This document shows, in pieces, positions 1 to 28,841 of a DNA stretch of 32,000 nucleotides. Under the pieces are notes generated by a model. It had not been told where the DNA came from. It ran no database searches and worked only from the letters and a program-made list of their open reading frames with translations. Where the stretch lies: the NCBI GenBank assembly GCA_025839675.1, contig CP104013.1:2940001-2972000 (forward strand), written 5' to 3'. The position numbers and the translations under genes were made by a program. Positions within the stretch are counted from its first letter, which is position 1; every line of letters begins with the position of its first letter. Source of the stretch: Candidatus Lokiarchaeum ossiferum. Lineage in GTDB: Archaea; Asgardarchaeota; Lokiarchaeia; Sigyniarchaeales; Promethearchaeaceae.

Positions 1-807
1 TTTGATTAAAGATTCAGATTTTTCTTTCTCGACTAAATCAGATTTATTTAATAGGATTAATATGGGGATGTGATTACTTTCAAAACTGGCTGGTGTAGGA
101 AAATATTGTTGGATAACTCTTTCAAATTCTTCTTTAAATTCAAAATCTCGCGTTTCTGACGATGAAACATCCACAACATATATGATTGCATCAGGTTTAT
201 GACAATCTTTAAACCAAGTCTGTCGAATTGCCTTTTGACCCCCCACATCATAAATTTGAAATTGAAAATGCTCAATGGCAGCCCGGAGAATTTGAGTACC
301 TAAAGTAGGGCGGATCTTTGGAGAGAAAGTCCCATATCTTAACAATTCAATTATTGAAGATTTTCCAACAGCTTCAATTCCTAAAAAGAGTAATTGGCCA
401 TAAGGGTGGTCTCCTTCAAATTCTTCAAATTTATTGATTGCTTGACGTAAGAATCGATCGATCTTAGATATCTTCATTTGAATGATTGGGGAGGTTTTAT
501 TCTTATGTGAAAATATCTCTAAAATGTGAGGAATGTTTTTTATTTGTTCAGAAAGATTCTGTAACTCCTTTCTCCAGTTAAAAATTGTATGCTCTTCGGT
601 CAATATTACTGAAATGAGGAGTAATTCATATCCAGTTCGAGCAATTCCAGAGGGAATACTAAATTTAAAATTAAGATATAATGCTTCTTCGTGCTTGACT
701 TCAAAAAAGGGAGCATCTAAATTCAAATCAAAAAGCTTAATTACAATATTTTTATCGGAATCATTAATATTTGAGGGAACAGCATTTAAAATCCACGGAC
801 CAGCCAT
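1..807 (-). CDS. Arf-family-like small GTPase with ~110-aa N-terminal extension (partial; C-terminus lies beyond the left window edge)
   Basis: Not in the ORF track because it runs off the edge. Hand translation of the minus strand (plus-strand triplets starting at 1,4,7...) shows no stop from 1 to 849; TGA complement is at 850-852. ATG at 807-805, with a second in-frame ATG at 477-475. The GTPase part reads LFLGIEAVGKSSII (P-loop, cf. Arf GLDAAGKTT), RPTLGT (switch I Thr), YDVGGQKAIRQTW (Arf-type DVGGQ G3), AIIYVVDVS and LLNKSDL (NKxD G4). Track ORFs 57..275(-) and 533..817(+) are off-frame/antisense to it. Confidence 0.8.
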   Translation of the reverse strand, partial: MAGPWILNAVPSNINDSDKNIVIKLFDLNLDAPFFEVKHEEALYLNFKFSIPSGIARTGYELLLISVILTEEHTIFNWRKELQNLSEQIKNIPHILEIFSHKNKTSPIIQMKISKIDRFLRQAINKFEEFEGDHPYGQLLFLGIEAVGKSSIIELLRYGTFSPKIRPTLGTQILRAAIEHFQFQIYDVGGQKAIRQTWFKDCHKPDAIIYVVDVSSSETRDFEFKEEFERVIQQYFPTPASFESNHIPILILLNKSDLVEKEKSESLIK

Positions 808-994
808 TCGATCATAGTAACTTACAAGTATTTTAACTGGCAAAGAAAATCATGAATACCATAGAATTACATCCAAAAAAGGTTTTTCACGCAAATAACG
901 AAGTTGTTTTTTCTAATCATTAACAAAATTGTTTTTTTGGGGGAAAATATCATTTGAGTATAATTTAATGAAGAAAAAAGGGAGAAAGTGAAAT

Positions 995-2686
995 TCACTC
1001 ATCAGTTATAAAGGATGTCAAGTTAATTTCAAATCCAGCTGTTGGATACTCTAATCCGAAATTTAAAATGACTTCAGGATGAATTTCACCGATATATCCA
1101 ATAATGTGATCTTTATAATGAATTTCGCCTGTTCGCCCGGGAATGAAAGTCGGATTTTCCGCTGGCACTATTTTTATGGCTTGTAATACCCCTAAAGTTC
1201 TTAAATAGTGATCTAAAACGGATTTGATTTCAGAATAATCACTTCCTTCAGAATGTAGGACGCAAGCAAGATGAGATTCCCGACGGGTTTGAGATTGCTC
1301 CTGTTTATCCAGTAGAATGACGTCTCCTACTTCAAATAGGCGGAAAGGTTTTTCCCCAGATCGGTTGAATTGTAAGTTTTTCATCAAACTCACCAGTAGA
1401 CTTCGCCGAACCGTGTTATATTCAAGGGAAACAGGATTTTCCAGAATAATTTCATCCGATTTTTTCATTGGTAAGCGGAGACTTAAATTATCATTTTTGG
1501 AAATTAGGATATTATTGGACATTTCGATACAACCCGTACCTACCATAATATCTCGTGTCTTCTGTTCATTTACCAATACAGGATGATACTTACCTAACCC
1601 TTCCATATTAATTGTCAGATCTAAATTTTGATACCCGTAGCCCATAGCAACTTCTTCGACGATATCCACTTCATGCATGATATCATCCCGATAGGCAGGA
1701 ATAGCGACATCAATCGTGTTGGAATCAACAATTTTGGCATCCAATCGCATTTTTTCTAAGCATTCCATCATTTCTTGGGGGGAGAGATGTAATCCAATAT
1801 AAGAATTAATGTAATCAACTCGAGCTTGCCAGTGTTTTGGAGTTAAATCAGGAGTATACATCGCATTATCGGGCTCATCCTCGTAAATCACTTTCACGGA
1901 CTCAACTTCACCTCCCATATCAGCAAAGGTTGAAGCTAAAATATTTAACGCTACATCCACAGCTTTTTTACTTGTTCCAGTAAGATCTAAGAGTAGATTT
2001 TTAGTTTTATCAGGTGTAACTGTGGTATATGTCCCATTTATCACAGGAGGAAAAGATACTACTTTTCCTTCAGCATCATAGATCATAGGATATTCATTAA
2101 AACCTTCTAATAAGTGGGCATACTGAATTCCCATCGGATGTTCCTCCAAAATTTCCTGAGGGGTTAATTCATAGGCTTCCAAGTGAAGAGCTTTAAATTT
2201 AACACCATCAGGCTTCACAGTGGTGTAAAGATAAGGCCCTTTGACAGTATCATAATCATGAATACCTATTGCAACCTTCTTCCGATCCCTTCCTACAGCC
2301 CAATGCAAGATTTCTTGCATTCGCATGAGAGTAATGACCTGGGTTTCATTAAGAGGTTCTGCAAAGCGAACTAATCCGGACACCACAAACGGACGAACTT
2401 TCCGTACTTTGGCATCTACCTTGAAATATTCCAACCCCTTCTTGACATGATATTCTTGTAACCCTTTTGCAAGACCATAATATCCCGCAAGAACGCGCGC
2501 GACCCCTTCAGGACTTGAAAAATCGGGACGATTGGGATTGAATTCTACCTTAATTATCCCTTCTTCAGGATCATAATCATCAATATCCAAGGATATCCAT
2601 TGTAAATCATATTGGAGTGTTTCATAAGTTAATTCCTTATCCAACAATTCTGATAGCTGGGAAATTTTTAATTCTATCGTAGGCAT
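995..2686 (-). CDS. pheT: Phenylalanine--tRNA ligase beta subunit (archaeal/eukaryotic type)
   Basis: Long ORF directly downstream of pheS. It has the FNPNRPDFSSPEGVARVLAGY motif typical of PheRS beta, and its length (~563 aa) is typical of archaeal beta subunits. I place the start at ATG 2686-2684: a GGGAGGTG Shine-Dalgarno lies ~11-17 nt upstream, and this ATG is 1 nt after the pheS stop (TAA complement 2688-2690). The track's extra 21 codons up to 2749 overlap pheS and look spurious. Confidence 0.9.
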   Translation of the reverse strand: MPTIELKISQLSELLDKELTYETLQYDLQWISLDIDDYDPEEGIIKVEFNPNRPDFSSPEGVARVLAGYYGLAKGLQEYHVKKGLEYFKVDAKVRKVRPFVVSGLVRFAEPLNETQVITLMRMQEILHWAVGRDRKKVAIGIHDYDTVKGPYLYTTVKPDGVKFKALHLEAYELTPQEILEEHPMGIQYAHLLEGFNEYPMIYDAEGKVVSFPPVINGTYTTVTPDKTKNLLLDLTGTSKKAVDVALNILASTFADMGGEVESVKVIYEDEPDNAMYTPDLTPKHWQARVDYINSYIGLHLSPQEMMECLEKMRLDAKIVDSNTIDVAIPAYRDDIMHEVDIVEEVAMGYGYQNLDLTINMEGLGKYHPVLVNEQKTRDIMVGTGCIEMSNNILISKNDNLSLRLPMKKSDEIILENPVSLEYNTVRRSLLVSLMKNLQFNRSGEKPFRLFEVGDVILLDKQEQSQTRRESHLACVLHSEGSDYSEIKSVLDHYLRTLGVLQAIKIVPAENPTFIPGRTGEIHYKDHIIGYIGEIHPEVILNFGLEYPTAGFEINLTSFITDE

Positions 2687-2687
2687 T

Positions 2688-4262
2688 TTAATAGGACACC
2701 TCCCGTAACCATGAGATATTACTTTGATACAAATCTCGAATATCTTCACGTTTAAGCTTTAACATAGCGAGTCGCTCTAATCCTAATCCCCATGCGAGAA
2801 CTCGAACAGGGTGCTTAATGCCCCATGCGTACGTAACTTCAGGTCGGAAAATACCCGATCCTCCCATTTCAAGCCATGCACCCAGTTCTTCACTGTATAC
2901 AGAAACTTCCATGGAAGGTTCAGTATATGGGAAAAATCCGGGGCGGGTGATCACTTTCTTGAATCCCATCCGGCGATAAAATTCAGTAATTTGACCAATT
3001 AGATCACTCAATGAGACATCTTCAGCAATCACGATGCCATCAATTTGCTGAAATTCAGCTAAGTGGGTGCGATCGACCTTTTCGTTCCGAAATACCCGAT
3101 CAATACAGAATACTTTGACAGGCAATTTTTGGTTTTCTAGCCCCACTTTTGCAAGATGACGAATAGTAGTTGCTGTAGTATGGGTGCGTAACAATAATTT
3201 TTTTGCTATATCTTCAGACCAATCATATCCCCACCCAGTAGATCCTGTATCACCTCCATTTTCATGGATATTTTTGATTTGGGACACATATTCCTTTTTA
3301 GGGAGGATTCCTTTGTTAGGTTTTTTAAGATAAAAGGTATCGTGCATTTCTCGAGCGGGATGGCCTTGGGGTTGATATAAACTATCAAAATTGTAAAAAG
3401 CTGTTTCGACAATTGGACCCCGAATTTCTTGAAATCCCATGGAAAAGAACACTTCACGAATTTGATTTTTCACAATCGTCATGGGATGCAACTTACCAAC
3501 TTGAAAGCGAGGTCCTTCAATCCCTACTTCATAATGTTTTAAATTCGCGAGTTTTTCTTTCCATTCACCAGATTTCAGCATATCGGAGGTGATCCTCAAT
3601 ACTTCTTCTTGTACTTCCTCGATCTCAGAAATTTTGATCTTCAGTCCTTTTTCGGTTAATTGAACAATTCTAACCGTTCCTTTTTCTCGACTAACCATTT
3701 TACGCTTGGTTAAGGTTTTGACTTCGTTTTGTAATTCTTTTGGTATGGAAGAGAGAGAAAGGGGTGAATCTTTAGTAAATAATTTTAAAAGATGTTCCAA
3801 AGAAGATTCTTCAGCAGCCTCACTGTAAATAAATATTTGATTTGTTCCAGCTGCATCTGAGGTCACTACCCATTTATTTTTTTTCATATTTGTGAGTGCA
3901 ATAAAGAAGATGTTTTTCTTAAACCCTAAAATCTTTGCAGCTTCAGCCGCTAACTCATCTAAATTCACTTCTTTTCGGCCATCTTTCACAAATAATTTGA
4001 ATAGTTGACGTTCGGGTAGTCCTTTTTCATAATACGAAAGTCCTTCTTTGTTTAATTTTAAGGATATAACTTCACTTTCGGAGAATGTTGCTAACCCATT
4101 TTGCTCTAAAGTATATACGGCGCCCGACATGAGTTTCTCATATCCTAAGTTAAGGTGCTTGCTCAAATCCCATGCTTCCATTGGTTTATTGAGCTTTTGC
4201 AACTCCTTAAGCACGTCCATATATTCCGTTTTTAACGCGATTTTCTGACTGGTGGGTGTCAT
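2688..4262 (-). CDS. pheS: Phenylalanine--tRNA ligase alpha subunit (archaeal/eukaryotic type with long N-terminal helical/winged-helix-like region)
   Basis: Class II aaRS signatures: GHPAREMHDTFYL, LLRTHTTATTIRHL, FCIDRVFRNE (motif 2), GLGLERLAML (motif 3). 524 aa, adjacent to pheT. Confidence 0.92.
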   Translation of the reverse strand: MTPTSQKIALKTEYMDVLKELQKLNKPMEAWDLSKHLNLGYEKLMSGAVYTLEQNGLATFSESEVISLKLNKEGLSYYEKGLPERQLFKLFVKDGRKEVNLDELAAEAAKILGFKKNIFFIALTNMKKNKWVVTSDAAGTNQIFIYSEAAEESSLEHLLKLFTKDSPLSLSSIPKELQNEVKTLTKRKMVSREKGTVRIVQLTEKGLKIKISEIEEVQEEVLRITSDMLKSGEWKEKLANLKHYEVGIEGPRFQVGKLHPMTIVKNQIREVFFSMGFQEIRGPIVETAFYNFDSLYQPQGHPAREMHDTFYLKKPNKGILPKKEYVSQIKNIHENGGDTGSTGWGYDWSEDIAKKLLLRTHTTATTIRHLAKVGLENQKLPVKVFCIDRVFRNEKVDRTHLAEFQQIDGIVIAEDVSLSDLIGQITEFYRRMGFKKVITRPGFFPYTEPSMEVSVYSEELGAWLEMGGSGIFRPEVTYAWGIKHPVRVLAWGLGLERLAMLKLKREDIRDLYQSNISWLREVSY

Positions 4263-4599: not shown

Positions 4600-5037
4600 T
4601 CAAAGAACCACATTAGAATTCTCTCCATACTCAATTTTGCTGAGAATTTCCTTGTCTTCAATTTTTTCCACCCATTGAGCTTTCTGCACCTTTGCTTTCT
4701 GAGATTCAATTGGGGGTCGATAAAAGAACATATAATACCCGATGAATATAAAGACTAATCCACCAATAGATAGGAAAATTCCTCCCATTTCAATAAATGA
4801 AATCCCTAGAAAAAAGAAAACTAATGATACAAGTATAAAAATTATCCCAAATATTTTCCATACTAAAGGGCGTGGGGCAATGAACGAATCATAGAAACAA
4901 GGTGCACATAACATTTCTGAATACCTTGTGGAAATTTCTTTCTTTCTTTTACATTCCACACATACTAAAGAATGGCAATTCTCACATGTTTCAACCGCTA
5001 TCCTGTCGGGGTGAAATTTACATTTTGGATCTGACAT
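4600..5037 (-). CDS. B-box-type zinc-finger membrane protein (2 predicted TM helices)
   Basis: N-terminus CKFHPDRIAVETCENCHSLVCVECKRK...CAPCF fits a C-x2-H-x8-C-x2-C-x4-C-x2-C B-box-like pattern. It is followed by two hydrophobic stretches (WKIFGIIFILVSLVFFFLGISFI, GIFLSIGGLVFIFIGYYMFFY). Confidence 0.6.
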   Translation of the reverse strand: MSDPKCKFHPDRIAVETCENCHSLVCVECKRKKEISTRYSEMLCAPCFYDSFIAPRPLVWKIFGIIFILVSLVFFFLGISFIEMGGIFLSIGGLVFIFIGYYMFFYRPPIESQKAKVQKAQWVEKIEDKEILSKIEYGENSNVVL

Positions 5038-5687: not shown

Positions 5688-6554
5688 GTGTTCAAGAAAA
5701 TGGCATCAGAATTAAATAAAAAAAATAAAAAAAAAATGAGCCCAATTTCGTTGTTCTTCCTGCTCAGTTATACTCTCTTTTGGGGATATTTAGTTGTTGC
5801 ATTTGCAATTATTACGATCCTTTCTTTAGATCCGGCGAATCTTCCGGTTTTTGCCGCAGAAATGTTAGGCATTGTCGGATCATATGCTCCAAGCGTCGCG
5901 GCTATCATAGTATTGCTTCAATATAATGATAAACAGGCAATAAAAGCGCTATTGAAACAATATATAAACTTCAAGGCTTCGTGGAAGTTATACTTACTGG
6001 GATTATTACCAATAGTTGTGGCATTCATCAGTGCATTAATTGGGAGAATTTTCATTTCTAATCCACCTGAAATCGTAATGTTATCCTCATTTGCTCCCGC
6101 CATCTTTGTTACTCTGTTGCTCGATGTTGCTAAGGGTCCTATTGGTGAGCAAGCAGGTTGGCGTGGCTTCGGATATGCAAAATTAATGGAAAAGCAAAGT
6201 TTCTTGAAAACTGGTTTGATAATTGGTTTTTTCTGGGCTTTTTGGCACGCACCTCTATGGTTGATGAATGCCTGGTCCATCGGAGAGGTTCTTGGTTTTA
6301 TCCTTACCGCGGTTGCTACAACACTCTTCATGAATTGGATGCGGTTTAAAAACCAAAAATCGTTGATACCTGTGGTGCTGTTTCATTTATCCATGAATTT
6401 TGGCTTGCAATTGGTGACCGATATTGGGTTCAACTTGATTTCTTTGCGTGTTTTGCTTCCGATATACGGAGTAGTGTTTGTTATTTTGGCAACATTATTC
6501 TACGCATCAAATAAATCTCAGCTAATTAACTCTTCTCATTCAAAAATTGAGTAA
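5688..6554 (+). CDS. CPBP family intramembrane glutamic endopeptidase (CAAX protease/Abi-like)
   Basis: Polytopic membrane protein carrying the three CPBP motifs: GEQAGWRGFGY (EExxxR-like), FWAFWHAP (FxxxH) and FHLSMNF (HxxxN). The track start is GTG 5688, with GAGG ~5 nt upstream. The first ATG is at 5700. Confidence 0.75.
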   Translation: MFKKMASELNKKNKKKMSPISLFFLLSYTLFWGYLVVAFAIITILSLDPANLPVFAAEMLGIVGSYAPSVAAIIVLLQYNDKQAIKALLKQYINFKASWKLYLLGLLPIVVAFISALIGRIFISNPPEIVMLSSFAPAIFVTLLLDVAKGPIGEQAGWRGFGYAKLMEKQSFLKTGLIIGFFWAFWHAPLWLMNAWSIGEVLGFILTAVATTLFMNWMRFKNQKSLIPVVLFHLSMNFGLQLVTDIGFNLISLRVLLPIYGVVFVILATLFYASNKSQLINSSHSKIE

Positions 6555-6684: not shown

Positions 6685-6772
6685 TGGTGTAGGAGGGGGG
6701 ATTCGAACCCTCGATGAGCTACCTCACTAGCGCCTCAGGCTAGCGCCGTGGACCATGCTTGGCTACCCCTAC
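6685..6772 (-). tRNA. tRNA-Leu (anticodon GAG), class II with long variable arm, genomically encoded CCA
   Basis: Hand-folded reverse complement: acceptor GTAGGGG/CTCCTAC (one G-U), D arm GCC...GGC, anticodon stem CTAGC/GCTAG with loop CTGAGGC (U33, GAG, G37). Variable arm TGAGGTAGCTCATC, T arm GAGGG-TTCGAAT-CCCCC, discriminator A, CCA. Confidence 0.9.
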
Positions 6773-14265: not shown

Positions 14266-15219
14266 ATGATAATGGTTACAATAGCAGATGGAAGATATTC
14301 TCTTCCCAGTTCTTACCTTTATTCCAAAACCCAGCATGTTTTCTTGGATAAAGTGAAAAAAATTTGTGGTTTAGATCAAATCGGCTATGCTTTTCTTAAA
14401 AAGCCAACAGAAATGCAAATACTAGTTGATAAGGAAGTAAAGGTGGGAGAACCCTTTGTTGCAATAACAACGGATAGAGGGATTTCAACCTTAAATTCAC
14501 CCTGTTCGGGCATATTGAAGACAAAGCATGATGATGCTTTGGAAAAAATGGAAAATGATACCTATGAATATGGTATTCTTGAGTTTGAAGAAATAACTGA
14601 AATTGATACTGCATTAATTACTGGAGCAGACATTGAACCTTGGGCTAATCATGAGGTGCGGTCATTATTAAAAAATGAATATAGCTTCAAGGTAATTTTA
14701 ACCGGAGATTCAGCAGTTGGAAAGACGGCCATTAAAGTCCGCTTTACAGATGACTATTTTAAACAAGACTTAAAGACAACTTTGGGAGTCGATTTTGGTT
14801 CAAAAGAATTGAAGTGCGAATATTTAACAGAAGATATTCTATTTTCTGGGGTGTATAGATTTACTTCAAAAATGAACGTGTGGGATGCTGCAGGGCAAAG
14901 TCATTATGACAAAATTCGAGGCATGTACTACCGAGATGCTAAAGGAGCACTTCTGGTGTATGATGTGAACAATCCTGTATCATTTGATAATTTAGATAAA
15001 TGGATTGAAGAATTAGATGAAAATTTGGGGCATGTGCCTACTTTACTCATTGGGAATAAAACAGATTTGGAGAGATTGGTACCACTTGAAAAAGCCTTGG
15101 AATTTGCGAAAAACCATGGTTTTCTTTATGCAGAATGTTCAGCAAAAACGGGTGATAAAGTTGAGAATGTTTTTCGGAAGTTAGCCATAGAAATCTACAA
15201 AAAAGAAGAAAATTTGTAA
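14266..15219 (+). CDS. Rab/Ras-like small GTPase fused to an N-terminal GcvH-like (single hybrid motif) domain
   Basis: GTPase part (aa ~141-317): GDSAVGKT (G1), TLGVDF (switch I), WDAAGQ (G3), YYRDAKGALLVYDV, GNKTDL (G4), CSAKTG (G5). There is no C-terminal Cys. The N-terminal aa ~17-125 match glycine-cleavage H protein motif by motif (see finding). Confidence 0.85.
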   Translation: MIMVTIADGRYSLPSSYLYSKTQHVFLDKVKKICGLDQIGYAFLKKPTEMQILVDKEVKVGEPFVAITTDRGISTLNSPCSGILKTKHDDALEKMENDTYEYGILEFEEITEIDTALITGADIEPWANHEVRSLLKNEYSFKVILTGDSAVGKTAIKVRFTDDYFKQDLKTTLGVDFGSKELKCEYLTEDILFSGVYRFTSKMNVWDAAGQSHYDKIRGMYYRDAKGALLVYDVNNPVSFDNLDKWIEELDENLGHVPTLLIGNKTDLERLVPLEKALEFAKNHGFLYAECSAKTGDKVENVFRKLAIEIYKKEENL

Positions 15220-20937: not shown

Positions 20938-22227
20938 ATGTTCGATATTGATGATTATTTTACCGATTTTATGAAGAATGAAAAAATTTTTGAAGATCGC
21001 GATGTATTACGCCCGGAATTTATACCATCTATTTTACCACATCGAGATTTGCAAGTGAAGCGAATTGCCGAAATCGTGGCGTGTACCCTTAAAAATTCTA
21101 TGCCTTCAAATATTTTCATTTTTGGTAAAACCGGAACAGGAAAAACAGCCGTTGTAGGTCATGTTAGCGAACGGTTAAATTATCAATGTCGAAAAGCGGG
21201 AATTACAGAATCTCAATGGATATTTTTAAATTGCCAGGAGGTCAATACAGGATATCGGATCTTAGCTAAAATTTGTGCGGAGATAGACCCTAACGATCCC
21301 GTTCCAATTGCAGGATGGCCCATTGACGTCATTTTCGATAAGCTCGTAGAAAAACTGGATAAATTTGTCGAAGGAATATGTTTTCTTGTTTTAGACGAAA
21401 TAGATATTTTAGTTAAAAATACTAAAAAATCGCATGATGTCCTATATAACTTGGCCCGTATCAACTCTCGCTTGAAAAAAGGGCGAGTGAACCTAATTGG
21501 CATTTCTAATGTATTAAATTTCAAAAGTGCCTTGGATCCACGGGTTCTTAGCAGTCTTGGAGAAGAAGAAATTGTGTTTCCAGCATATAATGCCATGGAA
21601 CTATCAGATATTTTACGCCAACGTGCCCAAAAAGCTTTTAATGAAAATGCACTCGACGATAGTGTGATACCTCTCTGTGCTGCCTTGGCGGCAAAAGAGC
21701 ATGGAGATGCGCGAAAAGCATTAGATTTACTTCGTAAAGCCGGAGAATTAGCTGAACGCCGCAATACACTCACAGTAACCTCTGATCATGTTTATTTTGC
21801 CCAAGCAGATATCGAAAAAGATAAAATGCAAGAATACTGTGAAGCTTTGCCACTCCAAAGTAAAACTATTTTATTAAGCATCTACCATATGCAGAAGTAC
21901 AGAGGGGAACAAGCCATAATTACTGGAGATATCTATAATGCATATTCTGAAATTTCCACTATGGTTCCCGGTCTAAATAAACTTACCCAACGGCGTGTAT
22001 CAGAATTAATCCGAGAATTAGATTTATCCGGGATGGTAAATGCCCGCGTAAAATCAAATGGACGTTATGGTCGGACCAAATTTATCAAGCTAAATATCCC
22101 CCTTAATGATACATCAAAATACTTAAAAAATGAACGCCGCTTAAACGAGCTAATCAATTATCGCCCCATTTGTGTAGGACAAAAAACGATCCAGCACAAT
22201 GGAACAAAATTTCGCAAGTTAGCATAA
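20938..22227 (+). CDS. cdc6: Orc1/Cdc6 replication initiator (AAA+ ATPase with C-terminal winged helix)
   Basis: Walker A GKTGTGKTAV, Walker B FLVLDEIDIL, sensor region HGDARKALDLLRKAGELA and a C-terminal wHTH-like segment RRVSELIRELDLSGMV. 429 aa. Confidence 0.93.
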   Translation: MFDIDDYFTDFMKNEKIFEDRDVLRPEFIPSILPHRDLQVKRIAEIVACTLKNSMPSNIFIFGKTGTGKTAVVGHVSERLNYQCRKAGITESQWIFLNCQEVNTGYRILAKICAEIDPNDPVPIAGWPIDVIFDKLVEKLDKFVEGICFLVLDEIDILVKNTKKSHDVLYNLARINSRLKKGRVNLIGISNVLNFKSALDPRVLSSLGEEEIVFPAYNAMELSDILRQRAQKAFNENALDDSVIPLCAALAAKEHGDARKALDLLRKAGELAERRNTLTVTSDHVYFAQADIEKDKMQEYCEALPLQSKTILLSIYHMQKYRGEQAIITGDIYNAYSEISTMVPGLNKLTQRRVSELIRELDLSGMVNARVKSNGRYGRTKFIKLNIPLNDTSKYLKNERRLNELINYRPICVGQKTIQHNGTKFRKLA

Positions 22228-22261
22228 ACTCAATCTAAGTGAAGCCCAATAATTAACCAAA

Positions 22262-22945
22262 TTATTCAAAGAACCACAATGATTTTTGATAAACGATATT
22301 CCGTAGAAGCTCAATGGTTTTTTCACTGTCTTTAACAAACAATTTCATGAAAATACGAGCAATGTGAATGCAAAACTGCTTTTGGGATTTTCGTAGAGAA
22401 TTATATTCTGGACAAGAGTGAGAAATGGATCGGGCTTTCACATCAATTTTAAAGCGATATGACTGTGAAATTCCGCCATCATCTTTACTTTTAACAATTC
22501 CTTCAATTTTATCGTCAAATGCAACTAAATCCAGTGAAACGGCGGAAGATCTTATTTTCCCGGCTTTTTCAAGAACTGAAACATCAACCAAATCCGACAG
22601 GAGAGCTTGATATGTCATGCTTGGAGTGATATCAATTGGAGGCCGCCATGATTGAGCTAATGCTGCAGCCATGGTTTTTGCTTTTAAAATCCCTTTTTCT
22701 TGCCAAGTGAGAAATTCCTGTTGTAATTCATCACTTAAAGAAATCGACTCGCTTTCTTTATTTTCAGAAAGATATTCCAGATGTATTGCTTGTTGAACTA
22801 TTTTTTTTGTCTTCTCCAAGGGGGCGAGAAATAAATCGAAAGCAATGAAATTATATAACTCATCAACATTAATTTCGGGTTGATCAATAATTTTCCACCA
22901 GTGAAGGACGATATTTTTGAGATCCGAAGGAATTGTAAAGGCCAT
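22262..22945 (-). CDS. SWIM-like zinc-finger protein, co-oriented 24 nt downstream of PolD DP1
   Basis: The C-terminal HSCPEYNSLRKSQKQFCIHIARIF fits the SWIM pattern CxCPx[FY]...CxHIxAxx, with the first Cys replaced by His. The N-terminal half is helical and I do not recognise it. Confidence 0.6.
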   Translation of the reverse strand: MAFTIPSDLKNIVLHWWKIIDQPEINVDELYNFIAFDLFLAPLEKTKKIVQQAIHLEYLSENKESESISLSDELQQEFLTWQEKGILKAKTMAAALAQSWRPPIDITPSMTYQALLSDLVDVSVLEKAGKIRSSAVSLDLVAFDDKIEGIVKSKDDGGISQSYRFKIDVKARSISHSCPEYNSLRKSQKQFCIHIARIFMKLFVKDSEKTIELLRNIVYQKSLWFFE

Positions 22946-22969
22946 TTTTTCTTGTTCCTTTGTATTATG

Positions 22970-24913
22970 TTACATATCAGCAGCTAAATCAATAACTTGG
23001 GGAGTAAATTTGCCATTAACATTAATAATGGTCGGTTTCCCAAAATCAGGTTCAATTCCCAGACTTTTCTGGAAATCAGTTTGACCTTGGAAACAACCTG
23101 AGTTGATTGTTGTGATGCCATGGTAAGTTCCCACGCCATTTTTATGGAGATGCCCGGTATGCAAAATATCTGGCAGGGTACTCATGATCATCCAATCTTC
23201 AAGTAAGGGGGCAATTTCAGTTTTTTTCCCATATGTAGGAGTTAAATCACGCGCTCGAATAAATTCATTCATTGTTTTACAAGGATCTTCGTGAGACATC
23301 CCTGGAATGGACATGTTCATATCAATCAACGAAGTTCCATGAAACATCTGGACCTTGATTCCGTGAAGACTAACCATAGTTGGGCAACCTACCATTGATA
23401 TACCCATTTCATACATTGCGGGAGCCATTTCTTTCGAGATTGCAGGATTGGGCACAGCCTTCCGAACAGCATCATGATCACCAGGGGAAGCAATTATTTG
23501 AATATAATCGGGAATTTGAGAGAGATATTCAGCGGTGGCCTCGTATTGTTTATAAATATCTTTAATAAATAAATGTTTATCTTGATTTGGATAAATTCCA
23601 ATTCCATCAACAATATCTCCAGCAATACAGAGATATTTGATTTTACCCGCTTGCTTTACTTGTTTATCCGATCCCATATTACAATTTAAATAATCAACGA
23701 ATCGATTCCATTCTTTTTCCAGCCAATATTTACTTCCAAAGTGAAGATCGGATACAAAACAGATCGATAGGTCTTCTTGCGGATAATTTATGGGATGGGT
23801 ATTGGGAGAATCAGGAAAGATAATCTTATTGATCATGATAATGCGAGAATTCGTTTTTTTATTCACACTTAAATATCCATCCACAATCACTACATGGTCG
23901 GGTAATAGATAATTCATCAAATCATAAAGTTCTTTAGGTTCTTGTCGCACTAAAGTCATACACGTTCCTGTTAGATCTTCAAATTCTATTAAATAATTCC
24001 GTTTTGAAGTTTGGCGTTTTTCAACTACCATCCCCACAAATTTCACTTCAACTGAATTTTCCAAGCGATTAATCATGTTGATATCCAAGAGACTATGACC
24101 TTCAGGACGTTTCTTTAAAATTTTAGTCAATTTATGAAACTTATCCGCTTGGAGTCCGACGAATTCATCGAGTTTTCCATCGGTGAACATTTTTCCAGTA
24201 GGATCTGAAATGATTTCCACTTCTGCATTATATTCTGAAGCTAATGGGCGAAAAGTTGAAGTTGATTGACGGATTTGAACACGTTGATAACTTTTCTTCT
24301 TTTCTTCCCGAATTCGCAGAATTTCGGTTTCGTCCATCCGCCCTTTACTCGAAGATGGAGTCTCAAGATTCGATTCAGGAGGGAGTTGTTCCGAAACAAC
24401 TTTATCATCCCCTAGATCTATGGTAGGAAGAGGCTTTAATACTTTCTGACCTGGAGGATTTTGAGAAATACTTGGAAACTCGGGAGAATCAGGTGGTTCA
24501 GGAATATCATTCAAATCGTCTATTGGAATCGATTTTTTATTTTTTTTTCCTCGATCTGGAACGAGTACTGATTTTTTTTTAATAAGATTGAGTGAATTCT
24601 TGGAATTACTGGTTTGAGAATTCAAGTTTGTTTCATTGCTACTATTATGATTAGAACGGCCTGAAATATCTTGTGGATGAATGTTTGGGGTAATTTTTGA
24701 TCCATATTCTTGCAATAATATTTCTAAAGTGACATGCGAATTAAAAATCGGTGAGAATGATATTTTTCGGATTAAATCTTCGAGTTCTTGCGCATTAAAT
24801 TTCAAATCTTCAATGTAACACAACGCTTCAGGGGAAATATTAATACGAGAAGCGAGAAATTTCTGAAGAATACTTTCGAGGGGAAATCCTTGAGGTGTTT
24901 GCGCAATGGTCAT
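22970..24913 (-). CDS. polB: DNA polymerase D (Pol II) small subunit DP1, Mre11-like phosphoesterase/exonuclease
   Basis: Calcineurin-like PDE motifs VSDLHFGS, IAGDIVDGIG, SPGDHDA, TGHLHKNG, with an OB-fold-like region before them. There is a short conserved N-terminal domain and then an ~140-aa N/S/P/K-rich linker. The symbol follows the UniProt convention for archaeal Pol II small subunits. Confidence 0.92.
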   Translation of the reverse strand: MTIAQTPQGFPLESILQKFLASRINISPEALCYIEDLKFNAQELEDLIRKISFSPIFNSHVTLEILLQEYGSKITPNIHPQDISGRSNHNSSNETNLNSQTSNSKNSLNLIKKKSVLVPDRGKKNKKSIPIDDLNDIPEPPDSPEFPSISQNPPGQKVLKPLPTIDLGDDKVVSEQLPPESNLETPSSSKGRMDETEILRIREEKKKSYQRVQIRQSTSTFRPLASEYNAEVEIISDPTGKMFTDGKLDEFVGLQADKFHKLTKILKKRPEGHSLLDINMINRLENSVEVKFVGMVVEKRQTSKRNYLIEFEDLTGTCMTLVRQEPKELYDLMNYLLPDHVVIVDGYLSVNKKTNSRIIMINKIIFPDSPNTHPINYPQEDLSICFVSDLHFGSKYWLEKEWNRFVDYLNCNMGSDKQVKQAGKIKYLCIAGDIVDGIGIYPNQDKHLFIKDIYKQYEATAEYLSQIPDYIQIIASPGDHDAVRKAVPNPAISKEMAPAMYEMGISMVGCPTMVSLHGIKVQMFHGTSLIDMNMSIPGMSHEDPCKTMNEFIRARDLTPTYGKKTEIAPLLEDWMIMSTLPDILHTGHLHKNGVGTYHGITTINSGCFQGQTDFQKSLGIEPDFGKPTIINVNGKFTPQVIDLAADM

Positions 24914-25043
24914 AGTTTTTTTTTCCTATCAATTCTTACCAATTTGCATATTTAAAGCCAGACAGCATCGACATTTTTAAAGTTTTACTATGCCATAAGC
25001 GTCCTTGATTTAATTTACATAAATTTCCCATTAAATGTATATA

Positions 25044-25058
25044 TTGTCACGCTGACAA
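25044..25058. promoter_or_regulatory. Perfect palindrome TTGTCAcgcTGACAA in the divergent DP1/DP2 promoter region
   Basis: 6-bp arms with a 3-bp spacer, read directly from the sequence. It lies immediately after an ATGTATATAT TATA-like element, ~110 nt upstream of the DP2 ATG. Confidence 0.3.
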
Positions 25059-25166
25059 ATCCAAATTTAAAGTAACATGTATAAAAGCACATACATAGGA
25101 AAATCATGTGAAAACATTCTTTTCCAAATCCTTCCGATTTTATATTCATCCCATTAGGTAAATATT

Positions 25167-28100
25167 ATGCCCGTCGTAATGTCCGAGAAAAGTAAAAAAT
25201 ATTTTGATAAAATTGAAGAAGATGTCAATAAAATTTATGAATTTGCCAATAAAGCTCGTGCTATAGGAATTGATCCAGCTCCTGAAGTGGAATCACCTCC
25301 TGCCCGAGATATGGCAGGACGGGTTGAAAAGTTAGTTGGACCTGAAGGAATCGCCCAATATTTGCGGGAGTGGAAGGAAGCAGGAGAAGATCAAGATGAA
25401 AGTTGTTTTCGAGCAATGGATTGGATCATCGATGGGAAATTTGGAAAGCAATATGATCCCAATGAAGCGGTTGATCTAGCAATTCGTGTCGCTTTAGCAA
25501 TAAAAACGGAAGGAGTTGTCTCAGCACCCTTAGAAGGTATTGCAAAAGTCGTCATTCGAGAAAATTTAGCAGGGGGAGAACCGTACTTAGCACTTTATTT
25601 TGCAGGACCAATTCGAGCAGCAGGGGGAACAGTCCAAGCTTTTGCAGTATTGTGTGCTGAACACGTTCGTCGAAAAATGGGGATCGCAGAATGGAAAGCA
25701 ACCCCCGATGAAGTGGGACGATTTGTTGAAGAAGTGAAACTTTATGATCGAATTATGAACTTGCAATATCCCTCCACACAAGAAGAGTTAGCCTTTGCTG
25801 TCGAACATCTGACGATTGAACTTAATGGAGATGCAACAGAGACCCAAGAAGTTTCAGCTTATCGAGATTTGCAACGTATTGAAACGAATTTTGTACGGGG
25901 AGGACCTTGTTTAGTTTTGAATGATGGGGTTTTGCTTAAGTCTAAGAAAATTTTACGTGTTATTGATAAGCGGAAGATCGAGGGGTGGGATTGGCTCCGA
26001 AAATTAAAAAAATTGGCTCATGCAGATACTAAAAAGAAAATAGATGAGGACGGGAAAGATAAAGCTAAGGATTATGGAGGAGACACTTACAAAGGTAAAA
26101 AGATCATTGAGGAAGAAGAAAAAGTTGAAGTTATAGCTGAATCCCCAGTGCAAAAACGCCAAGAATACTTGAATGAAAAAAATCCGCCTCTCAATAAATT
26201 CATTGCAGACATTATTGCTGGTCGCCCCGTTTTTGCTTATCCCTCTCGAATTGGAGGTCATCGCATAAGATATGGACGATCACGCAATACAGGTCTTGCC
26301 GCATGTGGCACGCATCCATCCCAAATGATTCTATTAGAGAGATATATGGCTATTGGCACCCAGATCCGAATAGAAAGACCGGGGAAAAGTGGGTCTACGA
26401 TGCCTGTCACATCTATCGAACCACCAATCGTTTTAATGAAAAATGGCGATGTAAAGCAACTTTGGGACATAAAGGAAGCTGCTGATATTGCGGACAATCG
26501 ATTAACGGCTAAAATTCTCTTTTTAGGAGATATGCTTTTTGGGTATGGAGAATTTGCAGAAAATAATCACACAGTTCTTCCATCAGGCTATTGTGAAGAA
26601 TGGTGGGCAGTGGAATTAGAAGATAAAATTCAAAAGATGACCGCTGACGGAGGCACACCCTTTACCGATCTTCCAGAAGATCTATCTCAACCAATAATTG
26701 AAAAAATGATCACAAATCCTTTTGATGAAATTCCCAATGGTCGCCAAGCTCTTGAACTTTCACGTAAGTATGATGTGGGAATCCATCCTCGCAGTTTAGA
26801 TCATTGGGGAAATATTAATGCGGTTGATCTTTTGGCAATTCGGAAGCAATTTGGTTTAGGACTTTGTAAATTATTCAAAGTTGCCAATACATCTGATCTT
26901 TCTATTGAAGCGCCATCTTTAACCCAATTAGAAACTAAGTTCCAGGATGGATTTGACCTTCCCATAACTTCCGAAACCAAAAAATTCTTTGAAACCGCTT
27001 ACACCCCCCATCAAAATTACGATTCATATATACATATTGATCCAAACCGTGCGATTATTTTTTATGAGCTCTTTGGATTTGGGACATCATCCGTTTATAC
27101 TTCCGAAGCAGAACAGAAAGCTCCCGAATTGACGGCATTGGATCTATTTCCTTACCTTACTTCTATCCGAGTTAATGATAAAGCCCCCCACTACATGGGA
27201 AGTCGGATGGGCCGCCCCGAAAAAGCAAAAGAGCGCAAAATGCGCCCTCCTGTTCATGGTTTATTTCCCATCGGACATGATTCCAAACTTCAACGGAGCT
27301 TTCAATCCGCTGCAGGAGTAGCCTACATTGAAGTGGAATTGGGACAAAAATCATGTCCAAAATGTAATTCCAATACATTTTTAAACAAATGTCCAAAATG
27401 TGGAACCTTGACCAACTTTAAAAAAATTTGTTCCCGTTGTAACAAACTGTACGATCAACAAGACACCGAATGTCCCGATTGTAATAGCTTTTTATCCAGT
27501 ACTTCCCTAAAAAAAATCCCTTTCAAGAAATATTTTGAAGTGGCCGCCAGTCATATTGCCAAGACCATCCCCTCCTTGAAAGGCGTTAAAGGTATGACTT
27601 CCGAATACAAAATTCCAGAACCGATCGAAAAGGGTATTCTACGAGGAATTCATGATGTATATGTTTATAAAGATGGTACAATTCGAGCCGATGCTACTGA
27701 TATACCCTTAACCCATTTTACTTGCCGTGAAATCAATACATCGGTCGAGAAAATCCTAGAACTCGGGTATGATCTTGATATCTATGGGAAACCCATTACC
27801 GATGAAAATCAGGTAATCGAGATAAAAGTGCAAGATGTTCTCCTCACCCATCACTTAGGTGATTATTTCGTCAAAGTGGCTAATTTTGTGGATGATGAAC
27901 TTCATTACCTCTACAAACAACCTAAATTTTATAATGTAAAAGATAAATATGATCTTATTGGCCACTATATGGCAGGCTTAGCCCCCCACACTTCGGCCGC
28001 TATCATTGGACGGTTAATTGGCTTTACATATGCGGAATCAGGCTATGCTCATCCTTATTGGCACGCCGCGAAACGTAGAAACTGTGATGGTGATGAAGAC

Positions 28101-28841
28101 GGAATCATGTTGCTCCTGGAATGTTTGCTGAATTTCTCAATGTATTATCTCCCTTCTTCTTTGGGAGGCAAAATGGATGCACCTTTAGTCGTTTCTTTGC
28201 TACTGGATCCCTTAGAAGTAGATGGAGAATCTCATAACGTCGATTATGCAAGCAAATATCCTCTCCGGTTTTATGAAGAAGCACTTACCTACAAAAAACC
28301 TAGCGACATGGACAGTTATATGGTTCTTTTCAAACATAAACTCCGTACCGAAGCGCAATTTGAAGGGTCAATGTTTACCCACCCAACTTCTTCGATTAAT
28401 CTCGGGCCTCGAAAATCTGCCTATACGACACTGGGTACAATGACTGAGAAAATTGAATCGCAATTGTACATGGCAAAAACAATTACTGCGGTTGATGCAA
28501 AGGATGTGGCCCGAAAGGTCATCTCCTCCCATTTTGCTCCAGATATTTTGGGAAATCTTCGCGCATTCTCTACCCAAGGGTTCCGATGTATAAAATGTGG
28601 CGCGAAATATCGTCGAGTGCCTATATCGGGAAAATGTAATAAATGTCGAGCCGGAAAATTGCTCATGACAGTCCATGCGGGGGGGGTCATCAAATATCTT
28701 CCAAAAGCTCAAAAACTTATTAAAGAATTTGATTTAGGGGACTATACTGAACAACGCTGGCAAATAATCGAAAAAAATGTAATGTCACTGACCAATAATC
28801 CCCGTGTGAAGCAAAAATCAATCAAAAGTTTCTTCAAATAA
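25167..28841 (+). CDS. polC: DNA polymerase D (Pol II) large catalytic subunit DP2
   Basis: 1224 aa. The catalytic double-psi-barrel signature is HPYWHAAKRRNCDGDEDG. Zn clusters: CPKCNSNTFLNKCPKCG, CSRCNKLYDQQDTECPDC, CIKCGAKYRRVPISGKCNKC. The sequence is contiguous, with no intein-like insertion. Confidence 0.95.
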   Translation: MPVVMSEKSKKYFDKIEEDVNKIYEFANKARAIGIDPAPEVESPPARDMAGRVEKLVGPEGIAQYLREWKEAGEDQDESCFRAMDWIIDGKFGKQYDPNEAVDLAIRVALAIKTEGVVSAPLEGIAKVVIRENLAGGEPYLALYFAGPIRAAGGTVQAFAVLCAEHVRRKMGIAEWKATPDEVGRFVEEVKLYDRIMNLQYPSTQEELAFAVEHLTIELNGDATETQEVSAYRDLQRIETNFVRGGPCLVLNDGVLLKSKKILRVIDKRKIEGWDWLRKLKKLAHADTKKKIDEDGKDKAKDYGGDTYKGKKIIEEEEKVEVIAESPVQKRQEYLNEKNPPLNKFIADIIAGRPVFAYPSRIGGHRIRYGRSRNTGLAACGTHPSQMILLERYMAIGTQIRIERPGKSGSTMPVTSIEPPIVLMKNGDVKQLWDIKEAADIADNRLTAKILFLGDMLFGYGEFAENNHTVLPSGYCEEWWAVELEDKIQKMTADGGTPFTDLPEDLSQPIIEKMITNPFDEIPNGRQALELSRKYDVGIHPRSLDHWGNINAVDLLAIRKQFGLGLCKLFKVANTSDLSIEAPSLTQLETKFQDGFDLPITSETKKFFETAYTPHQNYDSYIHIDPNRAIIFYELFGFGTSSVYTSEAEQKAPELTALDLFPYLTSIRVNDKAPHYMGSRMGRPEKAKERKMRPPVHGLFPIGHDSKLQRSFQSAAGVAYIEVELGQKSCPKCNSNTFLNKCPKCGTLTNFKKICSRCNKLYDQQDTECPDCNSFLSSTSLKKIPFKKYFEVAASHIAKTIPSLKGVKGMTSEYKIPEPIEKGILRGIHDVYVYKDGTIRADATDIPLTHFTCREINTSVEKILELGYDLDIYGKPITDENQVIEIKVQDVLLTHHLGDYFVKVANFVDDELHYLYKQPKFYNVKDKYDLIGHYMAGLAPHTSAAIIGRLIGFTYAESGYAHPYWHAAKRRNCDGDEDGIMLLLECLLNFSMYYLPSSLGGKMDAPLVVSLLLDPLEVDGESHNVDYASKYPLRFYEEALTYKKPSDMDSYMVLFKHKLRTEAQFEGSMFTHPTSSINLGPRKSAYTTLGTMTEKIESQLYMAKTITAVDAKDVARKVISSHFAPDILGNLRAFSTQGFRCIKCGAKYRRVPISGKCNKCRAGKLLMTVHAGGVIKYLPKAQKLIKEFDLGDYTEQRWQIIEKNVMSLTNNPRVKQKSIKSFFK

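Follow-up and report, generated by a model that had tools for sequence, protein, structure and literature searches.

An N-terminal longin domain joined to an Arf-family G domain in a small GTPase gene of Candidatus Lokiarchaeum ossiferum

Gene structure and source protein

We analyzed a 32,000-nucleotide stretch of the Candidatus Lokiarchaeum ossiferum genome (contig CP104013.1, positions 2,940,001–2,972,000 of the forward strand; hereafter the window), whose left edge cuts through a minus-strand gene for a two-domain small GTPase. Archaeal-type phenylalanyl-tRNA synthetase (PheRS) α and β genes lie directly upstream of this gene, and the window, with a GC content of 30–40%, also contains genes for Orc1/Cdc6 and for subunit DP2 of DNA polymerase D (PolD), contents that agree with an archaeal source. 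The features of the GTPase gene are as follows (aa, amino acids).

1–843, minus strand: codons 1–281 of the 323-codon coding sequence, by translation; the left edge of the window cuts off 42 codons and the stop codon
850–852, minus strand: in-frame TGA bounding the frame at its upstream end, read from the sequence
841–843, minus strand: TTG, taken as the true start codon from aligned starts in orthologous loci and the N-termini of homologues
805–807, minus strand: ATG, internal Met13, the start in a preliminary description of the window and in the 311-aa public annotation (P0157 compared with P0156)
475–477, minus strand: internal ATG, Met123, within longin helix α3 (119–144) of the AlphaFold2 (AF2) model
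875–885, minus strand: AAACCTTTTTT, conserved A/T-rich element and candidate promoter with a B recognition element (BRE) and TATA box, ending 31 nt before the start
409–843, minus strand: N-terminal longin domain, aa 1–145, from AF2, Foldseek and substitution ratios
1–408, minus strand: Arf-family G domain, aa 146–281 of 146–323, from Pfam, PDB and Foldseek matches

On the minus strand, no stop codon interrupts the frame between 849 and position 1, as the preliminary description had reported, and the peptide that it quoted and the ATG codons that it placed at 807 and 477 were found in the sequence. Its remark that the gene had been missed in the list of open reading frames (ORFs) is true but trivial, since that list omits frames running off the end of the source. 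It had also proposed recovering the C-terminus from beyond the left edge. The window protein matched residues 1–281 of a full-length protein of 323 aa (P0156) without a difference, and from this protein we took the absent C-terminus, KFSQLFNVNQLPMPHSMSLVSVKENIGVLSAFQWLISKKLME, whose 42 residues include the G5 motif (SVK) and helix α5.

A word-indexed search of 5.8 billion proteins revealed only six relatives containing both domains (P0001–P0006; five full-length ones of 321–323 aa and one fragment). P0001 was 98% identical to the window protein and is encoded on CP163304.1, a 6.27-Mb genome; its 90% cluster also contains P0156 and P0157 (311 aa). A search of genome contigs with the close alignment yielded 239 pattern matches, with no relative among them. 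We regard the identity of the protein, a longin domain fused to an Arf-like G domain, as close to certain. Chance as an explanation of the ORF is far exceeded by the Pfam score for Arf, the two-domain homologues and ratios of nonsynonymous to synonymous change (dN/dS) of 0.03 to 0.18 in the two halves.

Translation start and promoter-like element

Counting from the TTG at 843, the ATG codons at 807 and 477 are codons 13 and 123. The aligned start position was TTG in orthologous loci L001 and L002 and GTG in L004 and L005, and every homologue exhibited the N-terminus MxVKILVSY or a similar one; the window protein begins with MPVK. The three full-length homologues that are closest have Ile, Leu or Val at residue 13, with Ile in the 98%-identical P0001, and the ATG at 807 is therefore not a conserved start. 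The 12 residues upstream of Met13 form strand β1 of the predicted longin fold. The locus carries two public gene models, one of 323 aa starting at TTG and one of 311 aa starting at ATG 807 (the NCBI nr/UniRef version); the shorter model drops longin β1, and its start is probably mis-annotated. The corrected start, 12 codons upstream, thus mends the public annotation and also displaces the start at ATG 807 adopted in the preliminary description.

Translation solely from the ATG at 477 would yield an Arf of canonical size (~200 aa), with the 366 nt upstream being leader sequence or the remains of a gene. In favor of such a start, Met123 is kept, within IIQMK, by all five of the closest homologues. 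To set against this, dN/dS was calculated by comparing the window with two orthologous loci and counting synonymous and nonsynonymous differences. Over codons 2–145 (the N-terminal domain) it was 0.077 against L001 and 0.18 against L002, and over the G domain it was 0.03 and 0.12, respectively. No homologue contained a disruption of the frame in codons 2–145. This purifying selection indicates that the N-terminal half is translated and that a product starting only at 477 is not the main one. In addition, AF2 folded the N-terminal part at a predicted local distance difference test score (pLDDT) of 90, the domain recurs in 316 representative proteins, Met123 falls midway along helix α3, and the promoter-like element is located upstream of 843, not of 477. 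We therefore consider initiation at 477 as the sole event extremely improbable; a minor internal isoform may be made from it beside the main product.

The element AAACCTTTTTT was present at equal spacing in the window and in loci L001, L002 and L005, whose proteins share 64–98% identity. The gene upstream of it differs in L002, where it encodes an aminotransferase. Judged by its sequence, the element is a candidate archaeal BRE/TATA-like promoter, in which case the transcript leader would be short or nil. Translation begins at TTG 843, with transcription probably driven by the gene's own promoter just upstream.

Fold of the N-terminal domain

AF2 modeling of aa 1–145 gave a pLDDT of 90.2 and a predicted template modeling score (pTM) of 0.86. 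The predicted elements (β4–11, β15–22, α28–38, β46–51, β54–64, β72–82, α90–102 and α119–144) follow the β-β-α-β-β-β-α-α order of a longin. In a Foldseek search of the PDB with this model, ranks 1–10 were occupied by chains of GATOR1, SEA or FLCN-FNIP complexes (E-values 2e-5 to 1e-3; query-based TM score, TMq, 0.45–0.65). The GATOR1 (NPRL2/NPRL3) matches included 9v0j_A (E 2e-5), 7t3b_B and 7t3b_C, those of FLCN-FNIP2 were 8dhb_J and 6ulg_N, and the yeast SEA complex likewise belonged to this top group, whose leading matches had E-values between 2e-5 and 7.5e-4. The next matches were a Lokiarchaeota longin (8yqg), DENND10 and the Lokiarchaeota Rag-like GTPases 9m28 and 8zla, followed by the longins of VAMP7 and Sec22b. 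From the modeled fold, the N-terminal domain is assigned to the NPRL2/FLCN/SMCR8 class of longins, which comprises GTPase-activating proteins (GAPs).

Sequence comparison was far less informative. Pfam gave no match for the first ~145 residues of the window protein, with longin, Folliculin and NPR2 all absent, and NCBIfam recognized a generic small_GTP domain only, leaving aa 1–145 without a match. Hidden Markov model (HMM) searches of PDB sequences with N-domain profiles built from 7 and 55 sequences returned only coiled-coil and low-complexity noise, and no longin or LokiRag at E-values up to 10. In weak hhalign runs against the N-termini of human NPRL2, FLCN and C9orf72, the registers of a Gly-Pro (GP) motif and an Ala-Arg-Gly (ARG) motif were aligned, which we treat as a lead only. 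The numbering of these sequences agrees with the published residues R78, R164 and W33-D34/G38-P39. The FLCN residues A163-R164-G165 fell on the ARG of the window protein, in an alignment that is weak (E 0.077, probability <1%).

The preliminary description had held that an unrecognized N-terminal domain, starting at ATG 807, replaces the short amphipathic helix of Arf proteins. The replacement itself stands, by a real, translated domain of about 145 aa. Its novelty was compatible with the lack of Pfam and NCBIfam matches over aa 1–145, and the start with that of the public 311-aa annotation. However, Met13 is unconserved and preceded by β1, and the AlphaFold run that the description itself had proposed gave a confident longin, so that the fold is not an unknown one. 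The class has been published as NPRL2-like or FLCN/SMCR8-type Asgard longins, its fusions in Asgard archaea are published as well, and longin N-termini have been reported in Asgard Arfs (Zhu et al. 2025). A new domain beginning at ATG 807 is accordingly very unlikely.

Classification of the G domain

The four G motifs encoded in the window are located as follows; GIEAVGKSS, PTLG, DVGGQ and NKSD, as listed in the preliminary description, were all present in the translation.

358–381, minus strand: G1/P-loop GIEAVGKS, aa 155–162; G155, G160 and K161 invariant in 31 fusion proteins
298–309, minus strand: G2/switch I PTLG, aa 179–182; T180 invariant in the 31 fusion proteins
214–249, minus strand: G3/switch II DVGGQKAIRQTW, aa 199–210, of the Arf type DVGGQxxxRxxW, by conservation in the 31 fusion proteins
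37–48, minus strand: G4 NKSD, aa 266–269; N266, K267 and D269 invariant in the 31 fusion proteins

In switch II, D199, G202 and Q203 were invariant and R207 and W210 were conserved in at least 90% of these proteins. With G5 in the recovered C-terminus, the G1–G5 set is complete and has an Arf-type switch II; by sequence, all residues for GTP binding and hydrolysis are present, including the catalytic Gln203. Arf proteins undergo an interswitch toggle, in which GTP binding shifts the register by two residues; the spacing between PTLG and DVGGQ in the window protein is 16 residues, the same as in human ARF1.

The G domain was placed in the Arf family by every similarity measure used, all of them similarity rankings, in agreement with the preliminary assignment of an Arf-family G domain cut by the window edge. 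Pfam Arf (PF00025) scored 78.3 bits over aa 149–277 (cut-off 22.3), and Roc (43.4 bits), G-alpha (37.7), Ras (35.2) and Gtr1_RagA (29.6) scored lower. A phmmer search of PDB sequences with the full-length protein was led by Arl3, Arl8, Arf3/6/1 and Sar1. Profiles built from 7 and 31 sequences were led by Arl3 (up to 144 bits) and the Asgard Arf GTPase 8oul (138 bits), and their best 60 PDB matches belonged to the Arf family except for one G-alpha construct, miniGq. Foldseek with the full-length model was led by Arl1, Arf6, Arf1, Arl3, Arl6 and Sar1.

Classical Arfs have a short N-terminal amphipathic helix, in most cases myristoylated on Gly2, which enters the membrane when GTP is bound. Such a helix was not found in this protein, which begins with MPVK and has no Gly2, and no lipid-anchor motifs were found in it. 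The helix preceding the G domain (aa 119–144), the final one of the longin, is amphipathic, with a high hydrophobic moment and a negative mean hydrophobicity. The Arf/Arl HMM alignments reach back to query residues 137–142, in which the end of longin α3 is aligned with Arf residues 4–7.

An alternative classification would make the G domain Rag-like, that is, a relative of archaeal Rag/Gtr GTPases whose longin or roadblock partner domain had shifted to the N-terminus. Tran et al. 2024 (PMC10933270) found 26 of 74 small GTPases of strain MK-D1 combined with roadblock or longin domains; many of these carry an Arf annotation, and many such Arf-annotated ones were put in a structural class called "Rag-like, but also close to Arf". 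Rag-family GTPases fused to longin are described by Liu et al. (bioRxiv 10.1101/2020.10.19.343400). The Gtr1_RagA score also exceeds its cut-off of 22, and the best structural matches of the longin are regulators of Rag GTPases. On the other hand, Arf outscored Gtr1_RagA by 49 bits, no Rag chain occurred in the best 60 PDB sequence matches of three queries or in the best 50 fold matches, and the protein ends right after helix α5, at residue 323, with no C-terminal roadblock, the domain through which Rag GTPases dimerize. Switch II (DVGGQxxIRxxW) and G4 (NKSD) are of the Arf type; the RagA equivalents are DCGGQ and HKMD. Taken together, these data make a Rag-like G domain unlikely.

Conservation and fusion partners of the longin family

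Two positions of the longin domain stood out by their conservation.

796–801, minus strand: GP motif Gly15-Pro16, in the β1–β2 loop directly before β2, from family conservation and the position given in PMC12290439
637–639, minus strand: Arg69 (CGA), in the β4–β5 loop, motif A-R-[G/T], a candidate arginine finger from family conservation

A profile search of 1.84 billion representative proteins revealed 316 relatives of the N-terminal domain at E ≤ 1e-3, and the best 150 of these, together with the closest homologues found earlier, formed a family set of 154 members. Gly15 was conserved in 145, Pro16 in 146 and Arg69 (usually as A-R-G) in 148 of the 154. The layout of longin followed by G domain occurred in 50 of the 154 proteins examined, and Arg69 was kept in 44 of these 50; in the fusions, the P-loop follows the longin by ~10 residues, DxxGQ lies ~45 residues further and NKxD ~110 further. 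The remaining members stand alone (~150 aa) or are joined to PAS, V4R, HisKA/HATPase or GNAT domains. Among 63 scanned proteins, the partners of the longin with GP and ARG motifs included V4R (TRAPP/Bet3-like, with the longin N-terminal) in 13, PAS in 14 and histidine-kinase modules in 3–4; longin, Folliculin and NPR2 did not appear in a list of the 25 most frequent Pfam matches of these 63 relatives. Examples of proteins with this longin from the profile search include P0018, P0025, P0058 and P0063. In some proteins the longin sits C-terminally, as at aa 256–393 of P0025.

A recent analysis (PMC12290439; Traffic 2025) describes a GP motif before β2 together with an arginine finger as the signature of the GAP longins FLCN, NPRL2, SMCR8 and C9orf72, reports the GP motif to be absent from non-GAP longins, and finds both features in one class of Asgard longins, raising the question whether the clients of that class are ArfR or Rag GTPases. 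A catalytic arginine finger is defined here by structural equivalence to NPRL2 R78, FLCN R164 and SMCR8 R147.

The main rival to a GAP function holds that the longin is a platform for dimerization or partner binding, or is of the guanine nucleotide exchange factor (GEF) type, by analogy with the C-terminal roadblocks of Rag proteins, MglB, SRX and the longins of TRAPP, Mon1-Ccz1 and DENN proteins. The GP/Arg surface would then bind another protein or a ligand, and the role of the G domain would be confined to reporting or controlling this binding. According to PMC3747258, most characterized longins are platforms or GEFs. The fusions of the family to PAS, V4R, HisKA and GNAT fit the two-component fusions of Liu et al., homodimers of longin and roadblock GTPases have been modeled by Tran et al., the two homologues P0004 and P0005 do without the Arg, and the longins of VAMP7, Sec22b and DENND10 are also among the Foldseek matches. 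However, the best structural matches are specifically longins of GAP complexes, the GP motif is the one reported missing outside the GAP longins, and the Arg is 96% conserved over the family. We judge a platform or GEF role somewhat improbable, while regarding it as the alternative to be taken most seriously.

A model for longin–GTPase coupling

The probable overall explanation is, in our view, that the L. ossiferum gene encodes a soluble two-domain GTP switch composed of a GAP-type longin and an Arf-family G domain. The longin would serve as a built-in regulatory platform and would dimerize as in GATOR1, FLCN-FNIP and C9orf72-SMCR8, so placed that the surface with the GP motif and Arg69 faces the nucleotide pocket of the G domain, either in trans within the dimer or in cis. 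The longin helix of aa 119–144 is predicted to lead straight into β1 of the G domain and to take the place of the Arf N-terminal helix; because one helix is shared in that position, the way in which the longin is oriented could be linked to the nucleotide state. Neither a myristoylated amphipathic helix nor a lipidation motif is present, which makes a role as a membrane anchor unlikely.

On their own, Arf-family GTPases hydrolyze GTP at a negligible rate, and the arginine that they need comes from a GAP. In the mechanism that we propose tentatively, and hold to be possible rather than probable, Arg69 would act as a tethered arginine finger, so that the longin would be a GAP for its own G domain. 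A further reading, which we offer with slightly less assurance still, takes the protein as a "Rosetta stone" fusion: Arf-related GTPases would be the ancestral Asgard clients of the FLCN/NPRL2/SMCR8-type longins, and the protein would be a self-inactivating GTPase–GAP module. This reading is suggested by the tie of a GAP-type longin to an Arf-family G domain in roughly one third of the family and, if true, would answer the question of ArfR or Rag partners raised in PMC12290439.

Several observations weigh against the GAP-type switch and its arginine finger. The full-length AF2 model had a pTM of 0.51, with a pLDDT below 50 at aa 158–176 (P-loop/switch I), which makes the relative placement of longin and G domain unreliable and the proximity of Arg69 to the nucleotide hypothetical. 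Eukaryotic longin GAPs operate as heterodimers within large complexes. The longin profile exhibited no sequence-level match to any PDB longin, which leaves the likeness to eukaryotic longins one of structure and motif only, and in hhalign the N-domain profile aligned weakly with the human sequences (probability 13% for NPRL2, 0.7% for FLCN and 27% for C9orf72). In the 50%-identical homologues P0004 and P0005, Arg69 is replaced by Glu and the GP motif is without its Gly, yet DVGGQ is kept. Were the Arg to serve the fused G domain as its finger, its absence from a fusion might be accompanied by absence of the switch-II Gln; this pattern was not seen, and loss of the Arg was not tied to loss of the Gln among the 50 fusions. 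The counts themselves (Arg and Gln in 34, Gln without Arg in 4, Arg without a recognizable switch II in 5) are uninformative. Finally, the same longin family stands alone or joins PAS, V4R, histidine-kinase or GNAT domains, and this variety of partners makes it a general module that is not reserved for the G domain found here.

Comparison with known systems

Both the architecture and the domain class are already known for Asgard archaea, and the protein is an uncharacterized member. Liu et al. described families of an Asgard "NPRL2-like longin domain", many of them fused to two-component signaling domains, as well as GTPase–longin fusions, and according to the L. ossiferum genome paper (PMC9834061), "Arf-like GTPase" and "NPRL2-like longin domain" belong to the enriched families of the organism. 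What this analysis adds for the gene is the corrected start, the placement of the N-terminal domain in the class with GP and Arg, and the frequency of Arf fusion (50/154). A functional discussion of the pairing of a GP/Arg longin with an Arf G domain was not found in the literature searched.

The Asgard ArfR/AArf proteins (Vargova et al. 2025; Zhu et al. 2025; structures 8oul, 8ouk and 8oun) share DVGGQxxxRxxW, PTxG and NKxD with the window protein. The characterized ones, however, are single-domain proteins of 160–220 aa that bind membranes and have an amphipathic helix, whereas the window protein has a 145-aa longin and no Gly2. Asgard longin and roadblock GTPases (LokiRagM, 9m28/8zla; LokiRagO, 8yl2) resemble it in the covalent joining of a longin or roadblock to a small G domain, and LokiRag structures are among the fold matches of its N-terminal domain; unlike it, they were named Rag-like by their depositors, and they were absent from the best 60 sequence matches of the whole-protein profiles.

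GATOR1 (NPRL2-NPRL3), FLCN-FNIP and C9orf72-SMCR8 share with the window protein the longin fold, the GP before β2 and the conserved Arg before β5, and C9orf72-SMCR8 moreover acts on Arf GTPases. In contrast to the window protein, the subunits of these heterodimers combine a longin with a DENN or another C-terminal domain, and the Rag, Arf or Rab GTPases on which they act in trans are separate proteins; they have no demonstrable sequence homology to the window longin, whose GAP role is putative. The Asgard longins of the NPRL2-like, FLCN and SMCR8 type have the same GP and ARG motifs in at least 316 clusters, stand-alone or fused to PAS, HisKA/HATPase and V4R, and differ from the window protein in that its partner is an Arf-family G domain. 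The protein offers a compact single-polypeptide object from a cultured Asgard archaeon on which arginine-finger GAP activity and the choice between Arf-like and Rag-like clients can be tested. If such activity towards Arf-like GTPases were found, the longin-GAP/GTPase logic of GATOR1, folliculin and C9orf72-SMCR8 would predate eukaryogenesis.

Genomic neighborhood and other genes in the window

The GTPase gene lies downstream of pheS-pheT on the same strand, with a gap of 151 bp, and in close relatives the next gene after it encodes a CitMHS/ArsB-type transporter. The order pheS-pheT-GTPase-CitMHS was kept only in the closest relatives (L001–L003), with an aminotransferase gene inserted between pheT and the GTPase gene in L002; the neighborhood of L004 was entirely different. 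Since the arrangement is not kept beyond close relatives, it provides no signal of a functional operon. The stand-alone longin locus L007 has no GTPase neighbor.

The window encodes a second small GTPase of 317 aa at 14266–15219 (plus strand), with a Ras/Rab G domain (Pfam Ras, 158 bits, aa 142–311). It has an N-terminal extension of ~140 aa and a C-terminus ending in …IYKKEENL, with no Cys for prenylation. No Pfam match to the extension was obtained even at E ≤ 10, and none to the longin profile; VGEPFVAITTDRGISTLNSPCSGIL within it resembles a lipoyl/biotinyl-type hairpin, which makes it a candidate for such an element. The preliminary description was thus right that both GTPases of the window carry N-terminal add-ons in place of lipid anchors, the one a longin without Gly2 and the other an extension without a C-terminal Cys. 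As judged from their sequences, the two add-ons are unrelated to each other.

Other genes were noted as follows.

995–2749, minus strand: PheRS β ORF, GTG start, 584 aa
2688–4262, minus strand: PheRS α
4600–5037, minus strand: 145-aa ORF with a weak N-terminal match to a B-box zinc finger
5688–6554, plus strand: Rce1-like membrane protein of the CAAX-protease family (CPBP)
6685–6772, minus strand: tRNA-Leu(GAG)
20938–22227, plus strand: Orc1/Cdc6
22970–24913, minus strand: 647-aa metallophosphoesterase
25167–28841, plus strand: PolD large subunit DP2

The PheRS β ORF overlaps that of PheRS α by 62 nt. The PheRS β of a sister genome is 563 aa long and starts just after the α stop codon, and the shorter model indicates that the ORF in the window is probably over-extended at its 5' end. 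The B-box match of the 145-aa ORF (E 9e-4) is under the Pfam cut-off and may represent another small eukaryote-like domain or noise. The CPBP gene adjoins the tRNA gene; neither GTPase of the window has a CAAX box, and a link of the protease to them is therefore not obvious. Replication genes occupy 20938–28841, where the metallophosphoesterase is possibly the PolD small subunit DP1 and the intergenic regions flanking Orc1/Cdc6 might contain a replication origin.

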